Assembly: GCA_024275415.1 (NCBI GenBank)
Contig: JAJRZD010000032.1
Coordinates: 1 to 32,000 of the forward strand
DNA: 32,000 bases
Source of the DNA: an archaeon
Lineage (GTDB): Archaea; Asgardarchaeota; Thorarchaeia; Thorarchaeales; Thorarchaeaceae
Direction of reading: 5' to 3'
Shown: piece after piece, positions 1 through 28,224 of the stretch
How positions within the stretch are numbered: position 1 is the stretch's first letter
Layout of the letters: each line of letters begins with the position of its first letter
The notes under the pieces: model-generated
Told to the model about the DNA's origin: nothing
The model's database searches: none
Seen by the model: only the letters and a program-made list of their open reading frames with translations
Made by a program: the position numbers and the translations under genes

Positions 1-284
1 TTCTGCATGGCCTCAAAACGGTCATCTATCTGCTTCTGCATGGCCTCAAAACGGTCATCTATCTGCTTCTGCATGGCCTCAAAACGGTCATCTATCTGCT
101 TCTGCATGGCCTCAAAACGGTCATCTATCTGCTTCTGCATAGCCTCAAAACGCTTGTCCATAGCCTCGAAACGGTCATCCATCTGCTTCTGCATAGCCTC
201 AAAACGCTTGTCCATAGCCTCGAAACGGTCATCCATCTGCTTCTGCATAGCCTCGAAACGCTTGTCCATAGCCTCGAAACGGTC
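1..284. repeat. Coding tandem repeat: four identical 33-bp units (1-132), then 54-bp units (21+33 bp) at 133-186, 187-240 and a partial one at 241-284
   Basis: Read directly: ttctgcatggcctcaaaacggtcatctatctgc x4, then units combining cttgtccatagcctcgaaacg with a 33-bp variant. All unit lengths are multiples of 3. Confidence 0.95.
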
Positions 285-15421: not shown

Positions 15422-18400
15422 TTAGGACGATCCGACTTTGATTGCTTTTGGAAGGCACTCCTGAAGGATAGTTCCCAGCTTCGACACGACTTCATCTACG
15501 TTCTCCTTTGTAAAACATAGAGGAGGTTTGATCTTCAGTACATTTCTCATTATGCCATCAACACTTAGGAGCACTCCAAGTTCCTTCATGCGCTTTACAA
15601 TGTGATGAGCTTCAGCCACTGCCGGAGGACGACCACCACCAGCTCTAATAAGCTCGACTCCAAGGAAAAGTCCGATACCTCGTACATCCCCGATGAGTGG
15701 ATACTTGGACTTCAACCTCAAGAGTTCCTGCTTGAAATATTCACCTACGATTCGGGCATTCTCCTGCAGGTTCTCATTGTCAATCACATCCAACACTGCC
15801 AGTCCTACGGCACAAGACACCGTATTCCCTCCAGTCGTACTAAAGAACTCCATCCCCGTGTCGAAAGACGCAGCTATCTCCGGTGTCGTCACTACAGCCC
15901 CCATAGGATGACCGTTGCCGATAGGTTTGCCTAATGTCACAATGTCAGGAACCACATCTTGTGTTTCAAAGCCCCAGAAATGTGTCCCCATGCGACCAAA
16001 GCCAATCTGAACTTCGTCTGCGATACACACACCACCTGCAGCGCGAACATGCTCGTAAACATGTTTCAGATACTCCGAGGGAAACACCACCTGCCCAGCA
16101 CAGCTCATGACAGGCTCACATATGAAACCTGCAACATTGTACCCGCGCGATTTCAGATTCAAAATGCCAGTCTTCACAGCCTCAGCATGCTTTTTGCCCA
16201 TCCCATCAACAGAGCTATATGGACTTCGATATACATCAGCATTCGGGACTATCTCCACATTCGGTGGGGGATCATGGCCTCCAGGGCCTGCATGTTTATA
16301 GTGGCTCAGACCAATGAGATTGTCGGTATTGCCATGATACCCGCCCTCAAGTGCAATGAACCCACTCCTTTTCGTATGTGCCTTTGCCAACCTGATTGCC
16401 AGCTCATTCGCCTCACTCCCACTATTGACCAAGAAGCATACCTTGAGAGGTTCAGGAAATAACGCACATAGTCGTTTAATGTATCTAGCCAAATTATCAT
16501 GCAAGTATCTGGTGTTTGTATATAGCACCTTGGCCTGATCCTGTATCGCCTTGACTACCATTGGATGGCAATGTCCCACAGTGGGGACATTGTTCACAAC
16601 ATCAAGGTATCTTCGCCCGTCTTCGTCATAGAGATACTGCATCCAACCTCTGACAATCTTCAATGGGCTTTTGTAAGAAACACTCAGGTTCCTTCCGAGA
16701 TGTTGGTTACGGATATCTAGAATTGCCTGCGCAGTCAAGGGTGCCGATGAGAAGATGTCGTGTGATACTCCAAGAAGTAGGTTCGGGTCAGGACACAGGT
16801 TTGTCCAGAGAGACCTTTGATTCGGGGCACAGACACCATAATAGTCCCCCTCGAAATCGAACATATCTAGAATGATCTGGAAATGCAGATGTGGCGGCCA
16901 TCCTCCGTTGCTAGGGTACTCACCAATCCGAGCGATCTCCTGACCTGTGGTAACAGAATCTCCTTCTTTCAGGGAATCCAAGGAATCCTCAGTAAGGTGT
17001 GCGTATAGAGTAAAGAACGAGAAACCCTCATCCGTTTGATGCTTCAATATGATCGTCGGACCGTTGTCGTAGGGCCGGTTGTTATTCTTGAGGGCATGCA
17101 CTTTCCCATCTACGGGCGCGTAGATTGGGGTACCACTAGCAGAGAAAAGATCCATTCCAAGATGTATGGTTCTCGATTCAAAGGTCGATGTCTTGTACTG
17201 TGCACCTACATACATTAATCGTGCCTCATTATATCGTCCAATCCCAACACTGGCATTAGAAGCCTCAATCTTCGTGACAATCACCCGATTGAAACTCTTG
17301 ATATCGTTCAACTCGTCAGGACTTGCATAGTCACGACTTCCTACACTCAAATCAACAACCACAGGTTTCTCAAGATCCAGAACAGATGCAAACTTACCAC
17401 GATTGCATTCCAGCCATTCTTCAATGTGAATACTCTCAGGGTGGGCAGGGAATCCGCACGCATCACGAAATGCATACCACGCAAGTCGGGGATGTATTCC
17501 GCGGAGTTTAGCGAGAGTCCTCCATGCAGGATCCTCAGAAACACGCAGATATTCGTTGTCAGGCTCATAAGAGGCCTGTGCTGCGGACATACATACACTT
17601 TGTATAAGACGAGCGCATACCAGCGGGAAGAGAAGCCTAATCTCGTCCTCCGAGAGTGGGAATACTTGGTGATAGCCAGAAACGATGCTAACAGCAGACA
17701 TCAATGGATCGGGCTTATCGAGGATGGCATACGCGATTCCGATGGCCAAGTCCGCGATTGTGTAGGTGAACACCATATCGCCAAAATCTATTATCCCAAA
17801 AGTACGTCGATCGTCTGACCACGGTTTCTCAATCAAGACATTATAGTCATTCGCATCATTATGAGCAACACTCTTTCTCAGATTCTTCGCATCAGGAAGG
17901 AATTCGCATTCATATAGGCGATAGAAGTGCTCTATGACCTCTCGTCGTTCAGAGTCTGAAATGAGCTCTAAGTGACGCTCCACTATTTGAGGAACGTTCT
18001 TCAAATCCCAAACGAAATCGCGATGTGCCGCATCATGCTCAAAATCTGAAAGAGCGGCACTGATATAACCGAGGAATCGACCGAAATCACGAAGAAGACA
18101 TGGACTATGGGGGAGCGCTTTTGCTAGAACAGTTCCATGAATATACGTGAGCAGGCGGACAAGACACTGCTTGCCATCCCTATCACTGACTCGGACAATC
18201 AACTCGCCGTTCCGAGAAGGGATGACACGAGGAACACTGAAGAGTGGTGACTTCTTAATGATGTGCTCCATTGCCTTGTTCTGAAGATCGAGTACATTCT
18301 TAGTGTCATGAGCAGAAGAAACCTTTAGCACATAGGAAGGAGTATCATTCACAGATATGAGGAAGTTCTGATCACGTTCGCTTGGGAGAGTAGAGAACTC

Positions 18401-18496
18401 ACCGAACACACCATAATGCTCTTGGGCAATTGTCCTTGCAAGAGCTACATCAACCACCGGGCGCCCTTTTGTCCTACTGGTCAATGGAAAAACCAC
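15422..18496 (-). CDS. Fusion: hydroxylysine-kinase-like phosphotransferase + M23 peptidase-like domain + class III aminotransferase/phospho-lyase
   Basis: Kinase: SERDQNF, VLKV, HNDANDYN, IIDFGD. M23: HLGMDLF, YAPVDG, LYAHL, PPHLHFQ. PLP domain: NSGSEAN, ADEVQIGFGRMG, TLGKP, GGNTVS. Confidence 0.9.
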   Translation of the reverse strand: MVFPLTSRTKGRPVVDVALARTIAQEHYGVFGEFSTLPSERDQNFLISVNDTPSYVLKVSSAHDTKNVLDLQNKAMEHIIKKSPLFSVPRVIPSRNGELIVRVSDRDGKQCLVRLLTYIHGTVLAKALPHSPCLLRDFGRFLGYISAALSDFEHDAAHRDFVWDLKNVPQIVERHLELISDSERREVIEHFYRLYECEFLPDAKNLRKSVAHNDANDYNVLIEKPWSDDRRTFGIIDFGDMVFTYTIADLAIGIAYAILDKPDPLMSAVSIVSGYHQVFPLSEDEIRLLFPLVCARLIQSVCMSAAQASYEPDNEYLRVSEDPAWRTLAKLRGIHPRLAWYAFRDACGFPAHPESIHIEEWLECNRGKFASVLDLEKPVVVDLSVGSRDYASPDELNDIKSFNRVIVTKIEASNASVGIGRYNEARLMYVGAQYKTSTFESRTIHLGMDLFSASGTPIYAPVDGKVHALKNNNRPYDNGPTIILKHQTDEGFSFFTLYAHLTEDSLDSLKEGDSVTTGQEIARIGEYPSNGGWPPHLHFQIILDMFDFEGDYYGVCAPNQRSLWTNLCPDPNLLLGVSHDIFSSAPLTAQAILDIRNQHLGRNLSVSYKSPLKIVRGWMQYLYDEDGRRYLDVVNNVPTVGHCHPMVVKAIQDQAKVLYTNTRYLHDNLARYIKRLCALFPEPLKVCFLVNSGSEANELAIRLAKAHTKRSGFIALEGGYHGNTDNLIGLSHYKHAGPGGHDPPPNVEIVPNADVYRSPYSSVDGMGKKHAEAVKTGILNLKSRGYNVAGFICEPVMSCAGQVVFPSEYLKHVYEHVRAAGGVCIADEVQIGFGRMGTHFWGFETQDVVPDIVTLGKPIGNGHPMGAVVTTPEIAASFDTGMEFFSTTGGNTVSCAVGLAVLDVIDNENLQENARIVGEYFKQELLRLKSKYPLIGDVRGIGLFLGVELIRAGGGRPPAVAEAHHIVKRMKELGVLLSVDGIMRNVLKIKPPLCFTKENVDEVVSKLGTILQECLPKAIKVGSS

Positions 18497-19385: not shown

Positions 19386-19919
19386 CTATCTTCTACTCCC
19401 TGTACCACGTACCTTTGGAACCTTTGGTGTAAGAAGGATACGGCTTGAATCAAGGTAAGTGTCCATGACGAACATGGTGAGCGTACGGTCAACCTCGGGC
19501 ATCTGGCGAAGGAAGTCCACAATGAAACTGTTCATCTCTTCCACATCGCGAGTCCTGACCTTGAGGAGCACATCGAACTCTCCGCTAAGGACATGGACAG
19601 ATTGAACGAAAGGGTGCTCAGCGATATCCTTACAGAATTGGCGTTGTGACAGGATCTCTTTTCTTCCAGGCACCCGGTATCGCACCGTGATGAGAATCAT
19701 TGCCACTGTGGGACGACCTACTTTCGCTCCGTTAATCAAGGCGGTGTACCCTTCGATGACCTCCGACTCTTCCAATGCCTTGATACGGTTATGTACAGTC
19801 GAGATGCCTTTGCCGACCTTCTCGGCTATATCGCCAATCTTCATCCTCGCGTTCTGCTGGAGAAGCTCGATGATCTGGACATCGGTATGATCGATTTTTC
19901 CCGAAAAAATTTCAGTCAT
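19386..19919 (-). CDS. Lrp/AsnC family transcriptional regulator
   Basis: IDHTDVQIIELLQQNARMKIGDIAEKVGKGISTVHNRIKALEESEVIEGY HTH; C-terminal VHVLSGEFDVLLKV...V.RTLT ligand-binding domain. Confidence 0.93.
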   Translation of the reverse strand: MTEIFSGKIDHTDVQIIELLQQNARMKIGDIAEKVGKGISTVHNRIKALEESEVIEGYTALINGAKVGRPTVAMILITVRYRVPGRKEILSQRQFCKDIAEHPFVQSVHVLSGEFDVLLKVRTRDVEEMNSFIVDFLRQMPEVDRTLTMFVMDTYLDSSRILLTPKVPKVRGTGSRR

Positions 19920-19971
19920 ACTAGAAATATGTTGAAAAAACTGAAATATTTTCTGTTTTCTGCCGATAAAT

Positions 19972-19978
19972 CTTATAC
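19972..19978 (+). promoter_or_regulatory. Candidate TATA box (CTTATAC) for glnA
   Basis: 35 bp upstream of GTG 20013; preceded by AT-rich near-palindromes. Confidence 0.4.
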
Positions 19979-20012
19979 TTACATTCTGAGTGATGACACA
20001 AAACCCTTACTG

Positions 20013-21317
20013 GTGAACATATTGGAACAAGTTGAGGATATGGAATTCATTCGTGTGCTTTTCACATCGATTCTTGGAAAGACGTACAGCATCGAACTCG
20101 CATCAGAGAGAGCAGATGAGATATTTGGACCTGGTATATGCTTTGACGGGTCGTCAGTGCCCGGATATGCCGAAGTGAATTCCAGTGACCTCCTTCTCCG
20201 CCCACTGGTAGCCGCGCCACTGCCAGCCCTATGGGATAAATCCACAGGAATAGTGCCCTGTGCGGTCTATGAAACATCAGGAGAACCGCACGAATGCGAC
20301 CCGATTAACATCCTCCAGAAAGTGGCGAGGGCCTGCCGAGAGAAGGGATTCGAATTGGTCGCTGGATTCGAGCTTGAATTCTTTCTTGTGAGATCGGACG
20401 ATGGTGGTATCGCCCCAGCAGATGTAGGAAACTACTTTTCAACACCGCCACATGATAGGGGATTCGAGATTCGAAGGGATGTCATGAGGTCGCTTGAGCA
20501 CATGGGTATCGCGACAACAGCTCATCATCATGAGGTTGCAAGTGGTCAGCACGAGATAGGGTTGAAGCACGAGAAGGCTGAGAAGGCTGCCCTTTCCTTG
20601 ATGCTTGCGAAACATGTCATAAACCAGATAGCATGGCAAAAAGGATACGTTGCCACCTTCATGCCAAAACCGTTCATGGGAATCAACGGGAGCGGGATGC
20701 ATATTCATCAGAGTATCTGGTCCAGCGATATGGAACGCAATCTCTTCACTTCGGATGAGCCATCTGACATATCACCCATTGGGAAACGATACATTGCGGG
20801 TATCTTGGAATACGCCAGAGCGCTCTCAGCCATCGTTGCGCCAACGGTCAACTCCTTCAAACGATTGGTTCCCGGATACGAGGCCCCAACAAGAGTCGCT
20901 TGGGGACCAAAGAACCGGACAACAATGGTCAGGGTGCCACATTTCAATGGATCAGGTTCTTCTGCACGAATTGAGTTCAGATGTCCTGACCCTTCGTGCA
21001 GTCCACACCTTGCTCTTGCCGCAATACTTTCAGCAGGAATGCATGGGATAGAGAAAAACATGACTCCACCTGAACCTGTAACAAGTGACCTCTTCCATGG
21101 TGAGGCAGATGTGCAATCATTGCCAGGGTCGCTCGCGGAAGCCCTCGATATGCTTGAGAACGCACACCAGTTAGGTCTGAGGTTGGGTAGTAAGCCAGTC
21201 AGGCGGTTCTTGGAACTCAAGAGAAAGGAGTGGGAACGATATCACTCACAAGAAAACCATGTTGACATATCAGGAGTGACAGACTGGGAGATTAAAGAGT
21301 ATCTCTACAGTTCGTGA
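20013..21317 (+). CDS. glnA: Type I glutamine synthetase (or GS-like gamma-glutamyl ligase)
   Basis: FDGSS, FELEFF, HHEVASGQHEI, PKPFMGINGSGMHIHQS, NSFKRLVPGYEAP, RIEFRCPDP. Start moved from 19791 to GTG 20013 to remove the overlap with the Lrp gene and match the TATA spacing. Confidence 0.9.
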   Translation: MNILEQVEDMEFIRVLFTSILGKTYSIELASERADEIFGPGICFDGSSVPGYAEVNSSDLLLRPLVAAPLPALWDKSTGIVPCAVYETSGEPHECDPINILQKVARACREKGFELVAGFELEFFLVRSDDGGIAPADVGNYFSTPPHDRGFEIRRDVMRSLEHMGIATTAHHHEVASGQHEIGLKHEKAEKAALSLMLAKHVINQIAWQKGYVATFMPKPFMGINGSGMHIHQSIWSSDMERNLFTSDEPSDISPIGKRYIAGILEYARALSAIVAPTVNSFKRLVPGYEAPTRVAWGPKNRTTMVRVPHFNGSGSSARIEFRCPDPSCSPHLALAAILSAGMHGIEKNMTPPEPVTSDLFHGEADVQSLPGSLAEALDMLENAHQLGLRLGSKPVRRFLELKRKEWERYHSQENHVDISGVTDWEIKEYLYSS

Positions 21318-23020: not shown

Positions 23021-23105
23021 TCGAGAACACTCCACGGAGAAACAGCGCACAGGGGAATATATAGGATTCCAATATCAATTTGAATCAATATATATTATAT
23101 AGTTA

Positions 23106-25070
23106 TTACGTCTTTGTGAAGAAAGAATCGGAGGACGGGAGGTAGATGCCTGTCAGCACCTTACGGAGCACGCAGAGAGCGGTCTTCTTTGAGATGGATC
23201 GGGACTTAGCAAACTCAGTCACGTTCAACGGTCCTGCTTCCGATATATGATCCTTAAGAAGTGCAAGCCATTGAGTGGAAATTACTACCCCACATTCCTC
23301 GAAAAAATTCTGATCATCTGTCAAGGTGTCCTCAACATCACTCTGAACTTCATCAAAGTCAAGCTCCAATTCCTCACAAAGAGAACTGATATCAACAATA
23401 CCATTACGATTCACGGATTCTGCAATCTTTCTGAGAAGCCAAGGTCTATTGACGTAGTTGTCATCCCATGTGCGATACGAATCAACCACAAGTGGCTGGA
23501 TTGTCTTCTCGATCTCGGCTGTGTCCAGACCTCTCTGGATTGCCAAATCGTAGGGACGAAGTACGCCCATGTCATGGAACTCCCTCTTCAGCTCGTTGAG
23601 AAGAGCATCCTTTGAAACCATCTTACCGTCTGCATCCAGCAGAGTATCGGACTCGATAGTAGCAACAATCGATTCGATGACACCGGGTTCGGTATCAAAC
23701 CTCTTTGCGATTTCCTCTGGATCCAAGAGCTCGCCCGTGCTAAGGGCTTCGGCCAGCCACCTGCGAACCCATGAGATGGAGAGATAATCACCAGAATGAG
23801 TCGAAACTGTCTTTAGACCGAATCTTTTCAGCAGTGCAGCGAGCTCGACCCTGCTCACCAACCAACGCTTCTCGAATTCGTCTGCATGAACAATCCCTGA
23901 ACTCTTTACCTCCTCTAAGATGTGATTGCGTAATGCACGGTAGGAAACAAACCTGCCATCTCGTACTTTGCGAACATCGGGGTGGTTGCTTAAGATCTTC
24001 TCAGCCAAGCGGGTGTCGATACCAATTCGCATGGCGGTTTCCTTGGGCTTGAGAATTCCTGCAAGCTCTATGTCGTCCAATATCTCTTGTTTCACTTGGT
24101 CAATAGTCATGACCGAGCCATCATTAGTGGTTATGAGTGTCAGTCCAAGTTTCTGAAGAACCTTCTTGAGTGTGTCTGTAGAGATTTTCAGCCGGTTTGC
24201 TTCGACATTGACATCGATATGACCCTGACTCTCAAGAAGAGCAGTCAAGTCCTCTTGAAGAAGATGCAGAGGGAGAAGCTTGTCGTCGAACCCCTCCACA
24301 AGATCCCACTTGTATAGTGTAACAACTTTCAAGATGTCATCAGGAGTCAGATCAAGTCGTGCTGCCTCATGCTCCAAGTCAAGAAACCCCATTTTTGAGA
24401 TACTTCTTTCGAGGGTTCCCAGTAGCCACTTCACTGAATATACTAGACCTGATGAGGACTGCCAGACATACCATCCCCATGACTTGATCAGGTGTACCAA
24501 CTCATCAACATCGACCCGCAACCGTTGTGCCTCGGCAACGACATCAGCCCGCCCTTGTAGTTCAAGAGATTCGCGGATGCGCTCTTTCAGTTCAGGCACT
24601 AGCAGGTAATCACCATCCTTAGTCCGTAAGATATCAAGTCCTTCCTGCTCACTTATGTCATGGACAATCTGCTCGATCTTGGCAGGGGCGACATCCCATC
24701 GGATAGCCTCCTTGTCGACGTGGACGATTGAATTATTGACCAGCGTGTCCTTTATCCTCTTGCGCAACCCGACTGAGGACACGACCGAGGTCTTGGAGTA
24801 ACTCAAGATTCCATTGCGAGTGCGCCCTACCAGCTCATAAAGGGTCTTCAAATCCATTCCCCTAGAATCTAGTAAATAAGATAGTTCCGAAAGGGCTATC
24901 GATGACCTTGAATTCAGGATATGGTCAATCTCTCCAATCAACTGATGCCTTCTACGGGCGATGAGCTTGAGATACCCCCAGAAGAACAAGACGGAAATCC
25001 CAATAGCAACGGCAAGTGGCCAGAGGGGATCCTCAAGTAAGACAAATTGTTCGAGTAGTATCTCTGCCAT
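23106..25070 (-). CDS. N-terminally membrane-anchored protein with about 11 tandem ~55-aa winged-helix-like repeats
   Basis: TM segment LWPLAVAIGISVLFFWGYL, then a repeated L-x3-G-x-[ILV]-x4-A-x-R-L-x-[LIV]...G-x-[YFV]-[LV]-S-x2-W-L pattern. Starts 10 bp after the ATPase stop. Confidence 0.85.
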   Translation of the reverse strand: MAEILLEQFVLLEDPLWPLAVAIGISVLFFWGYLKLIARRRHQLIGEIDHILNSRSSIALSELSYLLDSRGMDLKTLYELVGRTRNGILSYSKTSVVSSVGLRKRIKDTLVNNSIVHVDKEAIRWDVAPAKIEQIVHDISEQEGLDILRTKDGDYLLVPELKERIRESLELQGRADVVAEAQRLRVDVDELVHLIKSWGWYVWQSSSGLVYSVKWLLGTLERSISKMGFLDLEHEAARLDLTPDDILKVVTLYKWDLVEGFDDKLLPLHLLQEDLTALLESQGHIDVNVEANRLKISTDTLKKVLQKLGLTLITTNDGSVMTIDQVKQEILDDIELAGILKPKETAMRIGIDTRLAEKILSNHPDVRKVRDGRFVSYRALRNHILEEVKSSGIVHADEFEKRWLVSRVELAALLKRFGLKTVSTHSGDYLSISWVRRWLAEALSTGELLDPEEIAKRFDTEPGVIESIVATIESDTLLDADGKMVSKDALLNELKREFHDMGVLRPYDLAIQRGLDTAEIEKTIQPLVVDSYRTWDDNYVNRPWLLRKIAESVNRNGIVDISSLCEELELDFDEVQSDVEDTLTDDQNFFEECGVVISTQWLALLKDHISEAGPLNVTEFAKSRSISKKTALCVLRKVLTGIYLPSSDSFFTKT

Positions 25071-25080
25071 CGAACGTCGC

Positions 25081-28029
25081 CTATAGAGTTATTCCTTTCC
25101 TGCGACAATAAGCCTTGTAAACCTCCAGACCTATCAGCGCTGGCAAGGTTGCCATGAAGGCGATGAACCAATCAAAGTATGTCAGGGGTAAGAAATAGAA
25201 TTCAAAGCCGGGGAGTGCCCCGACGAGGATCTCTTGGGCTAGTGGATTGTACATCAGCAGCAGAAATGCCATTATAATAAGTCCCAGCAACACAACGTAT
25301 CGGATGATTCCAGGCTCTGAAACAGACTTGTGGAAGGGTAGATTTACCCTTCGAATGATCAAGACCAATGTGCTTTCGAATATCAGTATCATGGTAAGCA
25401 GCATCGTTGTTGCTTTTGCTATCTGCAAATCCCAGCCAAATGGAAGTTGGGCTTCTTGACTATAATAGCCAGTCAAATTCTCAGGTACCAGCGCTAGTGG
25501 GTCACCCGGCTGAGCATTGAATGCAAGTGCGTACACTATCGAAGTGCCAATGACCATTAGAAAAACACCAACACCCATGAGTACAGCAAGCCGTCTCGTG
25601 ATAATGTCCTCACTATCTCGCGGCTTCTCCTCCATCGCCCGCGGTGAAGTCTTATCAAAGACAAGTGCCAATCCAGGGAACGAATGGGTTGTTGCCACGA
25701 GAAGAAGGCTTTGCCAAGAAGTCAGCATGTTGAATCCGGCAGGAAGGAGAAACAGAGCTCCGAAGAATATGATGGACTCAAAGAGATTGATGGCGATGTA
25801 GAAGAAGACCATCATCCGGATCTTGTTGAAGAGACCTCGACCCTCGTGTACCCCTGTGACGATAGACGCAAAACTATCATCCGTGATGACAATATCTGCT
25901 GCTTCCTTTGCTACGTCAGTGCCTGTTATTCCCATCGCAATCCCGGCATCACTCATAGCTAGGGCAAGAGCATCGTTCACGCCATCCCCAGTCATTGCCA
26001 CGACCTTGTTCTGATCCTGATATCGTTCGACAATCAGCTGCTTGTGCTCAGGGTTTACTCTGGCAAAGACATTCACGCGCTGGAAGTCATCCTCGGAAAT
26101 CTCAGCAATCTGGGAACCTTCGACAGCAAGCGAGCCGGGTCTGTAAATGTTCAGGTTACTGGCTATTGTCTTTGCTGTGGCGGCTGCATCCCCAGTTATC
26201 ATAATAACATTGATGCCAGCACTGTGGCACTCGCAAACCGCTTCCTTGACACCCTCTCGCGGTGGATCCACAATACATGCGAAACCTAGGTAGACGAGGT
26301 CTCGTTCAACTTGGTCACGTGCGTCAGGGACTGATGGCAGAACGTCCATCGTACGGTATGCAAGGGAAATGACTCTATAGCCTTTCGCTGCGAACCCATT
26401 GGTGAGGTCGGCAATCTGACCGCGGACATCATCCGTCAACAATGTCAGCGTTCCCGAATTGTTGTAATGAGTGCACCGAGGAAGCATGACTTCCGTTGCC
26501 CCTTTGGTAAAGACGATGTACTTTGAGTCGTGATTACAAATCTTCGACATGCGTTTGTATTGAGAGTCGAAGGGAAATTCCATCTCGACCTGATAGTTAT
26601 CCTTCACTTCATTCTCGTTCATTCCACTCTTTCGAAATAGGGTCAAAAGAGCTGCATCTGTAGGATCGCCAACAGCCATATAGACTGGCCCTTGGTCGGG
26701 GATGTCCTTTGTGATGATGGCAGAGTCATTATTGATTCCGCCACATAGTAGCAACAGTCGCAAGTTGTCATATGACTCGACGCCCAGCAATGGTGATGTG
26801 TTTTCAGTGTCCAGATTGTCGTATGTGACATCATCACCTAATCTCAGGATCTCTCCATCAGGTTCGTAACCATTGCCCGTGACAGTATAAAGGTGATTCA
26901 TATCCCAGATGTATTTCACAGTCATCTCATTTTTAGTCATGGTGCCAGTCTTATCCGAGCAGATGACACTGACACGCCCCAAGCTCTCAACAGCAGAGAG
27001 GTCTCTGATGATGACACCTTGCTTTGCCATCGCAAGAACGCCTGTAAGGAGGACTATCGTGGTAAGCAACGGGATGTTGATGGGCATTATCGTCATTGCT
27101 TTAGTGATTCCCGCCGTTATCGTGTCAATAATCTCATCGAAGCTCTCGACTCCAGGGGAACCAGTGAAGAAGGGGCCGAGAAAGGTGGCCCATGAGATGG
27201 AAACGAGCATCAGAAAGACTGCTGCAATCCCAAGGAGTTTCGCCAAGAGGTTCACTTTCTTTCTGAGGGGGATATCGCCAGTATTAAGCTCCTCGAGTGT
27301 GCCCTGTATCTTGCCAATCTCTGTCGCTCCGCCTGTTGTAGTTGCCACCACTTTTGCGGTTCCTGTGGCGATATACGTACCTAGGAATACCATGTTGTGC
27401 ATGTCTGTCAGGGGTGCATCTGCATCAACCACCACATGAGCGTCCTTTGTGACGGGGACGCTCTCACCAGTCAAAGATGCCTCATTTGCGGCCAGATTCG
27501 AACATTGGATGATCCGACCGTCAACGGGGATTCGGTCACCCTGTTCGAGCTTAAGGATGTCGCCAGGCACAATATCTGCTGGATCGACTTTCATTTCTTC
27601 ACCATCGCGGATGACCCGTGCATCACCAGCAGAGAGCTTCTCCAAAGCTTCGAGCTTTTTCTGAGCCCTGAATTGCTGGAAGATAGCAACGATACAGTTC
27701 ACGGCCACAATGACCAGCCAGAACATAGCCTGTTCGAATTGAGAATTCTCCGTTGGGAACATAAAGGCGAGGAAAACAAGTGCAAATGAGCTCAGCAGAT
27801 AGATGGTAATCAACCAGTTCAGTATTGGGGCAAGGTAAACCTTCCAGAATGAGCCTTTGACCTTTGGAATGACATTCGGTCCATATCTGTGAAGCCTTTG
27901 TTCGACCTCGTCCTGAGAAAGACCATAATCGGGGTTCACTGACAAGACCTGCAGGACTTGATCCGGGGTCATAGCGTGATACTGTTGAGTCTTTGGTTCG
28001 AGTTCGATGGTGGATTGCTGCTCGGACAA
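25081..28029 (-). CDS. P-type ATPase, P2A (SERCA-like) scaffold with non-canonical ion-binding residues
   Basis: YGPN, LTGES, CSDKTGT (26941-26955), FPFDSQYKRM, TKGA, DPPR, MITGD, FARVNP, MTGDGVNDA, ITDDSF. TM4 reads PINIP. TTG 28029 start preferred (GAGGT upstream); the ORF track starts at 28104. Confidence 0.93.
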   Translation of the reverse strand: MSEQQSTIELEPKTQQYHAMTPDQVLQVLSVNPDYGLSQDEVEQRLHRYGPNVIPKVKGSFWKVYLAPILNWLITIYLLSSFALVFLAFMFPTENSQFEQAMFWLVIVAVNCIVAIFQQFRAQKKLEALEKLSAGDARVIRDGEEMKVDPADIVPGDILKLEQGDRIPVDGRIIQCSNLAANEASLTGESVPVTKDAHVVVDADAPLTDMHNMVFLGTYIATGTAKVVATTTGGATEIGKIQGTLEELNTGDIPLRKKVNLLAKLLGIAAVFLMLVSISWATFLGPFFTGSPGVESFDEIIDTITAGITKAMTIMPINIPLLTTIVLLTGVLAMAKQGVIIRDLSAVESLGRVSVICSDKTGTMTKNEMTVKYIWDMNHLYTVTGNGYEPDGEILRLGDDVTYDNLDTENTSPLLGVESYDNLRLLLLCGGINNDSAIITKDIPDQGPVYMAVGDPTDAALLTLFRKSGMNENEVKDNYQVEMEFPFDSQYKRMSKICNHDSKYIVFTKGATEVMLPRCTHYNNSGTLTLLTDDVRGQIADLTNGFAAKGYRVISLAYRTMDVLPSVPDARDQVERDLVYLGFACIVDPPREGVKEAVCECHSAGINVIMITGDAAATAKTIASNLNIYRPGSLAVEGSQIAEISEDDFQRVNVFARVNPEHKQLIVERYQDQNKVVAMTGDGVNDALALAMSDAGIAMGITGTDVAKEAADIVITDDSFASIVTGVHEGRGLFNKIRMMVFFYIAINLFESIIFFGALFLLPAGFNMLTSWQSLLLVATTHSFPGLALVFDKTSPRAMEEKPRDSEDIITRRLAVLMGVGVFLMVIGTSIVYALAFNAQPGDPLALVPENLTGYYSQEAQLPFGWDLQIAKATTMLLTMILIFESTLVLIIRRVNLPFHKSVSEPGIIRYVVLLGLIIMAFLLLMYNPLAQEILVGALPGFEFYFLPLTYFDWFIAFMATLPALIGLEVYKAYCRRKGITL

Positions 28030-28224
28030 TGTCAGAACCTCTTCATAGGTGCATTGGATGAAAGGACTTGCCATTGATAAATGAACTTGTAATCTATAGT
28101 CCATCCCACCGCTTTCATTTGTATTTGGTAAGCTCCATCCCTTTTGAAGATTATTGATACCATTTTCGACAGGTTCTTGTGCTTTTGCTATTGGTCAAGT
28201 AGTACCTTAACAAGAGGTGTCAAG

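Follow-up and report, generated by a model that had tools for sequence, protein, structure and literature searches.

The UFM1 E3 ligase of eukaryotes, the UFL1-DDRGK1 pair, is an unusual ligase of the scaffold type, which holds the 60S subunit in a clamp at the endoplasmic reticulum. Both partners are assembled from winged-helix (WH) domains. DDRGK1, also called UFBP1, comprises a transmembrane (TM) segment, a long helical N-terminal region (NTR), a winged helix termed WH1' and a partial WH; UFL1 comprises an N-terminal helix, a partial WH, WH1 to WH5 and a C-terminal domain, and the two partial WHs together form one composite domain (Peter 2022, PMC9627666; Makhlouf 2024, PMC10937380). An origin of UFL1 and DDRGK1 in Asgard archaea has already been published (Picchianti 2023, PMC10183829), and an E3-UFM1-ligase domain has been noted in Asgard fusion proteins (Liu 2021 preprint, 10.1101/2020.10.19.343400). 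The origin was proposed in one sentence of the published work, together with a suggested role that preceded UFM1. Here we describe a gene in a 32,000-nucleotide stretch of DNA from a member of the Thorarchaeaceae (contig JAJRZD010000032.1, positions 1 to 32,000; hereafter the window). It encodes a membrane-anchored array of eleven winged helices that is homologous to the WH array of UFL1-DDRGK1, and we found no description of this TM-anchored family in the literature.

The gene is a single open reading frame (ORF) of 654 amino acids on the minus strand and occupies exactly 23106..25070, as seen from the ORF list and its translation. An earlier reading of the letters (the original prediction) had placed at just these coordinates a TM anchor followed by about eleven repeats of about 55 residues. 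The strings that it quoted are all present, in repeats 3, 4, 5 and 10, and the C-terminal wing it singled out is that of repeat 11. An AlphaFold2 model built from 11 homologues (mean predicted local distance difference test, pLDDT, 83.3) consists of a helix spanning residues 17-54 and then eleven units of the form H-(b)-H-H-b-b, each of about 55 residues, in agreement with the number and length first proposed.

Is this rod related to UFL1, or is it one more prokaryotic tandem of helix-turn-helix (HTH) domains? The Pfam model E3_UFM1_ligase (PF09743) matches the protein with 45.1 bits (cut-off 23.2; E 1.3e-11). The same model is matched by 18 of 19 family members at E<=0.01, the best at 2.7e-14; the next Pfam family is matched by only 4. 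When a profile of the 19 members was run against 177,635 distinct PDB sequences, two entries alone appeared at E<=1: 8b9x, a human DDRGK1-UFL1 chimera (4.5e-8), and 8c0d, UFL1 (1e-4). With a profile of the first 215 residues, four UFL1 sequences came first, aligned to native UFL1 residues 27-90. NCBIfam models gave no meaningful match on the protein.

Structural comparison led to the same group. The top five Foldseek matches of the full model are all UFL1 (8qfc, 8ohd, 9gy4) or the 8b9x chimera, with E-values from 6.9e-12 to 2.2e-10, and SelB follows at 3.6e-5. A separate model of WH2-WH5 reaches a pLDDT of 91.7 and a predicted template modelling score (pTM) of 0.76, and thus predicts rigid packing between the domains with confidence. 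VIA compared this model exhaustively, with no Foldseek prefilter, with 48,161 representative chains. Chain 8b9x_B ranked first (Z 14.1, 223 of 224 residues aligned, root-mean-square deviation (rmsd) 6.6), with UFL1 chains 8qfc_B (Z 9.9) and 8c0d_D (Z 9.1) in second and third place; the best single-WH match reached Z 8.8 (60 residues), and SelB stood at Z 6.7-6.8. A further VIA run returned 8b9x at Z 12.1. The nearest cluster in the Atlas fold search is an Asgard cluster of 788 aa that carries PCI, PF09743 and DDRGK (TM-score by query 0.61); two eukaryotic UFL1 clusters rank next, and then SelB. The Atlas language-model search listed three eukaryotic UFL1 clusters at 0.77, which is below the trust level and serves as a lead only. 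Because the Pfam, PDB profile, structural and Atlas fold searches agree and no competitor emerged, we conclude that the rod shares a common ancestry with the WH scaffold of the UFM1 E3 ligase in eukaryotes, and that the original prediction of a prokaryotic analogue or homologue is supported.

Could the likeness nonetheless be convergent, or a product of repeat composition in a generic tandem-WH array? The PF09743 signal is spread over units 2-3, 5-6, 9-10 and 10-11, and each stretch falls below threshold when taken alone; the register against UFL1 is ambiguous, being WH10-11 by Pfam and WH2-3 by PDB profile; and the language-model score is the sub-trust value given above. Against these points, the PDB sequences yield only UFL1, nearly the whole family matches PF09743, UFL1 entries hold ranks 1-3 of the exhaustive structural search, and the first three Atlas fold clusters (one Asgard, two eukaryotic UFL1) all carry PF09743. 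We therefore regard a generic array as very improbable. SelB (PDB 1lva, 4zu9, 2pjp), a prokaryotic chain of four WHs, is the next-best multi-domain structural match, but it trails UFL1 in Foldseek (3.6e-5 versus 6.9e-12) and in VIA (Z 6.7-6.8, at rmsd 5.7-9.4, versus 14.1), so the rod does not match HTH arrays of this kind better than it matches UFL1. No SelB WH Pfam model matches the protein, and SelB is a GTPase fusion that binds selenocysteine insertion sequence (SECIS) RNA. ESCRT-II, RPC62 and SelB were all rejected as identities, UFL1 outscoring them structurally by orders of magnitude.

Homology to this scaffold does not amount to orthology. In common with UFL1-DDRGK1, the protein is tethered to the membrane and carries a cytosolic chain of PCI-like WH domains whose backbone is built from helix 1 of every unit, with a sequence match to PF09743 above the Pfam cut-off and matches to PDB 8b9x, 8c0d, 8ohd and 8qfc; with DDRGK1/UFBP1 it shares the N-terminal TM anchor and a WH part that is predicted to be cytosolic. 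It differs from the eukaryotic complex in being one chain rather than two, in having 11 WHs rather than 7, and in having no split (composite) WH, WH2 being complete and continuous. The UFC1-binding helix at the N-terminus of UFL1 (aa 1-25) has no counterpart, the N-terminus here being the TM anchor, and both the C-terminal helical domain of UFL1 (the C-terminal region or domain, CTR/CTD, which occupies tRNA sites) and its peptidyl transferase centre (PTC) loop are lacking. Also missing is the long charged helical NTR of DDRGK1 with its UFM1-interacting motif (UFIM); instead, helix 17-54 runs straight into WH1. The DDRGK Pfam model (PF09756) has no match on the protein at E<=10 and matches 0 of the 19 family members at E<=0.01. 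Since the UFC1-binding helix, the split WH, the NTR with its UFIM, the C-terminal domain and the DDRGK signal are all absent, the protein is not an orthologue of UFL1 or of DDRGK1. The original prediction had called it a DDRGK1-UFL1 hybrid. The UFL1 half of that description stands, whereas the DDRGK1 half comes down to topology and a modest alignment at the junction. The string ITGVIDDRGKF, which had been taken for the terminus of DDRGK1, is in the alignment the wing of DDRGK1 WH1', and it resembles the C-terminal wing here in ways that most repeats share. PCI proteins proper (PF01399, a helical-repeat subdomain plus one WH) are a different case: the protein has no PCI match, and only single WH units resemble the WHs of the COP9 signalosome (CSN) and the proteasome lid, at Z of about 8.

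The features of the gene, from its start towards its stop codon, are the following.

23106..25070, minus strand: whole gene, a membrane-anchored array of 11 winged helices (ORF translation, Pfam, AlphaFold2 model)
24960..25025, minus strand: transmembrane anchor, residues 16-37 (hydropathy, relatives, model helix)
24777..24959, minus strand: WH1, residues 38-98, divergent and basic (isoelectric point (pI) 9.8), adjoining the membrane (model, charge)
24591..24776, minus strand: WH2, residues 99-160; its helix 3 is long, and it is the unit aligned to the composite pWH'/pWH of DDRGK1-UFL1 (profile-to-PDB)
24435..24590, minus strand: WH3, residues 161-212, the most conserved repeat; aligns with UFL1 WH1 (conservation, alignment)
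24405..24638, minus strand: residues 145-222, the wing of WH2 together with WH3, where conservation within the family is highest (conservation windows)
24270..24434, minus strand: WH4, residues 213-267 (model, repeat alignment, profile-profile comparison, four-WH model)
24105..24269, minus strand: WH5, residues 268-322 (model, repeat alignment, profile-profile comparison, four-WH model)
23943..24104, minus strand: WH6, residues 323-376 (model, repeat alignment; single-WH structural matches at Z 8-9)
23778..23942, minus strand: WH7, residues 377-431, basic (pI 9.3) (model, alignment, profile-profile comparison)
23613..23777, minus strand: WH8, residues 432-486, acidic (pI 4.2) (model, alignment, profile-profile comparison)
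23448..23612, minus strand: WH9, residues 487-541 (model, alignment, profile-profile comparison)
23277..23447, minus strand: WH10, residues 542-598, very acidic (net charge -11) (model, alignment, profile-profile comparison)
23109..23276, minus strand: WH11, residues 599-654, basic (repeat alignment, invariant columns)
23106-23108, minus strand: stop codon of the WH-array gene

For the repeat alignment, units were cut at the boundaries of the AlphaFold2 model. MAFFT places all eleven in register, with a conserved Gly after helix 1 and a D/S-G turn in the wing. Profile-profile comparison of family sub-alignments links repeats 2-9 to one another at 76-98% probability over about 50 columns, and repeats 10 and 11 to several other repeats at no less than 90%, whereas repeat 1 reaches at most 33% with any other. 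On these values ten repeats are homologous by sequence and repeat 1 by fold only. Plain self-BLAST reveals no internal repeats; the repeats are old and divergent. WH3 reaches a conservation of 0.65, and 11 of its columns are near-invariant. Of the eight 15-residue windows with the highest conservation, four fall between residues 145 and 222, a block that overlaps the stretch with the best UFL1 match. WH10 lies inside the best PF09743 stretch, residues 538-639. WH11 has all WH elements in the repeat alignment, and its terminal wing holds the invariant residues G641, Y643 and D648; this wing is modelled with low confidence (pLDDT 62 and 44 in the last two blocks) despite its strong conservation. 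The protein stops at this wing, with no further domain in the model and no further Pfam match, and contains no catalytic or ligase-specific element.

Single units match the WH domains of PurR, Z-alpha and BirA and the PCI WHs of the CSN and proteasome lid at Z 8-10. Because they resemble both ordinary winged helix-turn-helix (wHTH) domains and PCI WH domains at this level, each unit is a bona fide winged helix, as had been proposed from the letters alone. The best single-domain matches include PurR, Z-alpha, IclR, ScpB and SelB, and WH1, WH7 and WH11 are basic. Might the protein then be a membrane tether for nucleic acid, holding chromosome, plasmid or mRNA through its wHTH-type units? The protein as a whole is acidic (pI 5.1), WH8 and WH10 strongly so; no DNA-binding HTH family reaches its Pfam cut-off; and multi-domain geometry and sequence favour the protein-binding UFL1/PCI-like class over SelB. 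A nucleic-acid tether thus appears highly unlikely to us.

The anchor itself was examined by hydropathy and flanking charge, and on both counts the TM segment of the original prediction was confirmed. Residues 16-37 are the sole strongly hydrophobic segment, and the best 19-residue Kyte-Doolittle window (19-37) has a mean of 2.03. Its N-terminal flank is acidic (E3, E7, E12, D13) and its C-terminal flank basic (K35, R39-R41), with an RRRH stop-transfer sequence after the anchor. The positive-inside rule alone predicts an N-out/C-in topology, with a short N-terminus of only about 15 residues outside the membrane and the remainder in the cytoplasm. In the model, helix 17-54 leaves the membrane and becomes helix 1 of WH1 without a spacer. 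Of the seven distant, full-length relatives that were checked, six have a hydrophobic N-terminal segment followed by a basic cluster; the anchor of the relative P0012 falls below the hydropathy cut-off of 1.6. Across the family the TM segment is poorly conserved (conservation 0.40).

How does the order of the units compare with that of DDRGK1 and UFL1? The best sequence alignment on UFL1 27-90 runs through unit 2 (the end of helix 2, the long helix 3 and the wing) and unit 3 (helix 1, strand 1 and helix 2). With 8b9x, the alignment crosses the junction of the chimera into the final DDRGK1 residues, about 6 bits above UFL1 alone and the sole trace of DDRGK1 in the sequence, and places the near-invariant W125 on a DDRGK1 Trp. 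Four consecutive WHs superpose on DDRGK1 WH1', the composite domain, UFL1 WH1 and WH2 (the Z 14.1 match). The order TM, WH1, WH2 (composite), WH3 (UFL1 WH1) would accordingly be colinear with DDRGK1 followed by UFL1. This colinearity is suggestive rather than shown, since the repeats are similar to one another and Pfam, whose best stretch is WH10-11 where the PDB profile selects WH2-3, and the structural aligners choose other registers. It is nevertheless tempting to ask whether the family keeps, or has re-created, an unsplit membrane-anchored DDRGK1-UFL1 state, in which case the eukaryotic pair would have arisen by a break inside the second WH and the archaeal protein, without UFM1, would already bring large ribosomal subunits, or a different large complex, to the membrane. 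We hold this scenario to be unlikely. The family does offer a test of whether the eukaryotic composite WH is the scar of a gene fission, and it is a confidently modelled case in which a DDRGK1-like anchor and a UFL1-like WH rod are joined in one chain.

A word-indexed protein search found ten relatives at 49-62% identity, three of them partial and the other seven about 650-660 aa long; all four named relatives belong to Thorarchaeota metagenome-assembled genomes (MAGs). An exhaustive profile search brought in another fourteen cluster representatives of nearly full length (610-665 aa), the most distant at about 30% identity; matches beyond these were partial only. Named members are Thorarchaeota, plus one MAG labelled Lokiarchaeota that shows the same synteny. 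Among 400 genomes of the phylum, full-length orthologues are confined to the GTDB family of the source genome, where they occur in about nine of 16 genera. Two large genera of this same family gave 2 of 28 genomes (weak partial matches only) and 0 of 17, and other Asgard families gave weak partial matches only. The gene is single-copy, PF09743 and the family profile each finding only this gene in the genome. A soluble UFL1-like paralogue, sought in the genome with P0033 as query, was rejected as a candidate, the only hits being to an unrelated C-terminal domain in two other proteins.

The nearest non-orthologous relatives in a profile search (E 7.5e-27 to 1e-5) are receptor-like Asgard proteins, among them a 1258-aa protein (L023, G009:C90, 765-4538, minus strand) and P0029, P0036, P0039 and P0045. 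Each combines a signal or TM segment with a large ectodomain, after which come a second predicted TM segment and a cytoplasmic UFL1/DDRGK-like WH array; the ectodomains are of the GIFT/ABC_transp_aux, PKD, NosD beta-helix or laminin-G type, and in most of the proteins the second TM segment is marginal (1.61-1.62). As in the present family, a predicted TM segment precedes the WH array, which lies on the cytoplasmic side. The receptor-like proteins, however, have large ectodomains and fewer WH units, whereas the present protein has about 15 residues outside. A WH array also forms the tail of a 2867-aa Asgard protein (PF09743, 44.6 bits).

Soluble Asgard proteins of 700-790 aa combine Cys-rich (CxxC-type) zinc-finger N-termini with WH arrays that reach the cut-offs for PCI, DDRGK and E3_UFM1_ligase. 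Two of these, L020 (G127:C23, 1707-3884, minus strand) and L021 (G133:C68, 1155-3260, plus strand), are 700-726 aa long and come from other Asgard families; in L021 a DDRGK match (128-218) lies ahead of a UFL1 match (237-435). These soluble homologues share with our protein the WH array superfamily, the phylum and the single-chain state. They differ in their zinc-finger N-termini, in having no TM anchor and in scoring above cut-off for PCI and DDRGK; the present family has a bare anchor, 11 repeats and the UFL1 signal only, and is found in one Thorarchaeota family. Of the Asgard WH-array proteins, the present family is the closest to DDRGK1 in topology, owing to its bare N-terminal anchor. Its narrow distribution, together with the many other Asgard UFL1-like arrays, limits what can be claimed about the eukaryotic ancestor.

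What might such a protein do? We infer that this UFL1 homologue is probably a non-catalytic docking scaffold at the membrane that works independently of UFM1. It would be a single-pass protein with a short N-terminus facing outward, whose TM helix leads straight into a cytoplasmic rod of eleven PCI-like WHs. The rod would hold a large cytoplasmic partner at the cell membrane, and would do so without UFM1 tagging and without catalysis. Independence from UFM1 is suggested by a rod without ligase-specific additions and by a genome in which no UFM1 conjugation set was detected, and a UFM1-independent role has been proposed for Asgard homologues (Picchianti 2023, PMC10183829). The juxtamembrane position of related WH arrays in receptor-like Asgard proteins is also consistent with a membrane scaffold. 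Because the WHs of the UFL1 complex touch the 60S subunit and the conserved block includes the stretch aligned to an eL13-contacting segment, the large ribosomal subunit would by analogy be the first partner to consider, though a tentative and somewhat doubtful one. In the 60S-bound structure every WH domain except UFBP1 WH1' touches the ribosome, and UFL1 N78 and Q83 contact eL13 (PMC10937380); both residues lie within UFL1 27-90, which is part of the minimal ligase module (PMC9627666) and aligns within our block 145-222. A complex prediction for WH2-WH5 with the genome's own eL13 scored 0.01, which gives no verdict for or against binding. The family provides a concrete protein with which to ask what the scaffold binds without UFM1, and could reveal a scaffold role that preceded it.

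The UFM1 pathway was searched for in the genome, which is 92.9% complete, with Pfam models: none was found of Ufm1, UFC1, UQ_con, ubiquitin, UFSP (Peptidase_C78) or CDK5RAP3. One ThiF-type E1 is present and is generic, the same kind being found in most prokaryotes used as controls. Over 400 Asgard genomes the Pfam Ufm1 model gave nothing above cut-off. Divergent Ufm1 homologues have been reported in nine Asgard clades (Koestlbacher 2026, PMC12962969), and they are invisible to that model. It could thus be argued that the rod is an E3-like scaffold for a divergent ubiquitin-like (UFM1-type) conjugation system that has escaped detection, with the ThiF-type protein as its E1. Such a system would lack a recognizable E2 of the UFC1/UQ_con type, ubiquitin and UFSP in this genome, its E1 would be of a kind common to most prokaryotes, and its scaffold would carry a TM anchor in place of the UFC1-binding N-terminal helix, which makes an E3-like function very unlikely in our estimation.

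Several observations weigh against a UFM1-independent ribosome-docking scaffold. Absence of a modifier is not proven, given that Ufm1 homologues are published in nine clades while the Pfam model detects none. The eL13-contact residues differ, D176 and A181 standing here where UFL1 has N78 and Q83, and the UFL1 C-terminal domain, the source of much of the 60S specificity, is absent. Restriction to about nine genera is odd for a general ribosome-handling factor, and the tight linkage to a P-type ATPase gene hints at another job.

Two kinds of sub-threshold match were met in these searches. In one Asgard family, 5 of 12 genomes have ORFs of 300-920 aa (mostly about 700) with no other Pfam domain that match positions 19-56 of the Ufm1 model at about 17-20 bits; examples are L024 (G081:C130, 1-1923, minus strand) and L026 (G084:C80, 1210-3105, plus strand). 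The Ufm1-like stretches of L024 and L026 may be embedded beta-grasp domains or chance matches, and as neither carries a UFL1-like domain, both were set aside as UFM1-linked leads. The best match to the DDRGK model in the source genome, sub-threshold at 20.1 bits over model positions 101-152, is a 150-aa ORF (G000:C110:42940-43095, plus strand), probably an ordinary wHTH protein. The DDRGK-model matches of this genome (C110 and C21) were rejected as generic sub-threshold wHTH, the model having matches in 9 of 14 control genomes too.

The surroundings of the WH gene are organized as follows.

25081..28104, minus strand: P2-type cation ATPase of Asgard type, a 1007-aa ORF upstream on the same strand (Pfam families of orthologous neighbours)
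25071..25080, minus strand: 10-nt spacer between the ATPase stop codon and the start of the WH gene (sequence)
23087..23102, minus strand: AT-rich, TATA-like run just past the WH-gene stop codon (sequence)

Six orthologous loci, whose WH products are 30-62% identical to ours, share one gene order: an S8 peptidase on the opposite strand, the P2-type ATPase, the WH gene, panB, and then DUF1858 and SCP2 on the other strand. The spacer between ATPase and WH gene measures 14-24 nt in these loci, and the distance from the WH gene to panB about 80-120 nt, with a small extra ORF between the two at one locus. Judged from this spacing, the WH gene is likely to be co-transcribed with the ATPase, and panB is likely to form a separate unit, of which the TATA-like run is possibly the promoter.

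Does the ATPase explain the WH gene? P-type pumps are known to have single-pass regulators, and the WH protein could be an accessory or regulatory subunit, co-translated with the pump, whose rod recruits or regulates factors there; the ATPase stop codon is 10 nt ahead of its gene, on the same strand, and the short spacing persists in the six loci despite the divergence of their products. Yet 81 of the family's 86 genomes have an ATPase orthologue (61-78% identity), among them genomes of genera that lack the WH gene, and in six WH-negative genomes panB comes directly after the ATPase. Since the ATPase stands directly ahead of panB in these genera, the pump can do without the WH gene, which represents either an insertion or a loss in particular lineages at the 3' end of the ATPase unit, and an obligate partnership with the ATPase was rejected. 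Moreover, the whole block of S8 peptidase, ATPase, panB, DUF1858 and SCP2 is syntenic, which makes adjacency weak evidence, and the TM segment is poorly conserved. We therefore think a pump subunit quite unlikely, and continue to favour a docking scaffold homologous to UFL1. Most genomes of the family hold a second ATPase paralogue of about 36% identity (one at G000:C81).

Further features of the neighbourhood were recorded. In the related loci L004 (12751-17953, minus strand) and L006 (12709-17956, minus strand) a giant gene, with products of 2878 to 4596 aa and no recorded Pfam match, lies beyond SCP2; at this position the window has a glutamine synthetase gene. The longest glutamine synthetase ORF (508 aa, 19791-21317, plus strand) overlaps a divergent AsnC/Lrp-type regulator gene (19386-19919, minus strand). 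Since its orthologues are 429-435 aa long and the long ORF overlaps the regulator gene, the true start is probably about 75 codons further downstream. Elsewhere in the window, a 1024-aa ORF (15422-18496, minus strand) combines APH-type phosphotransferase, Peptidase_M23 and class-III aminotransferase domains in one chain.

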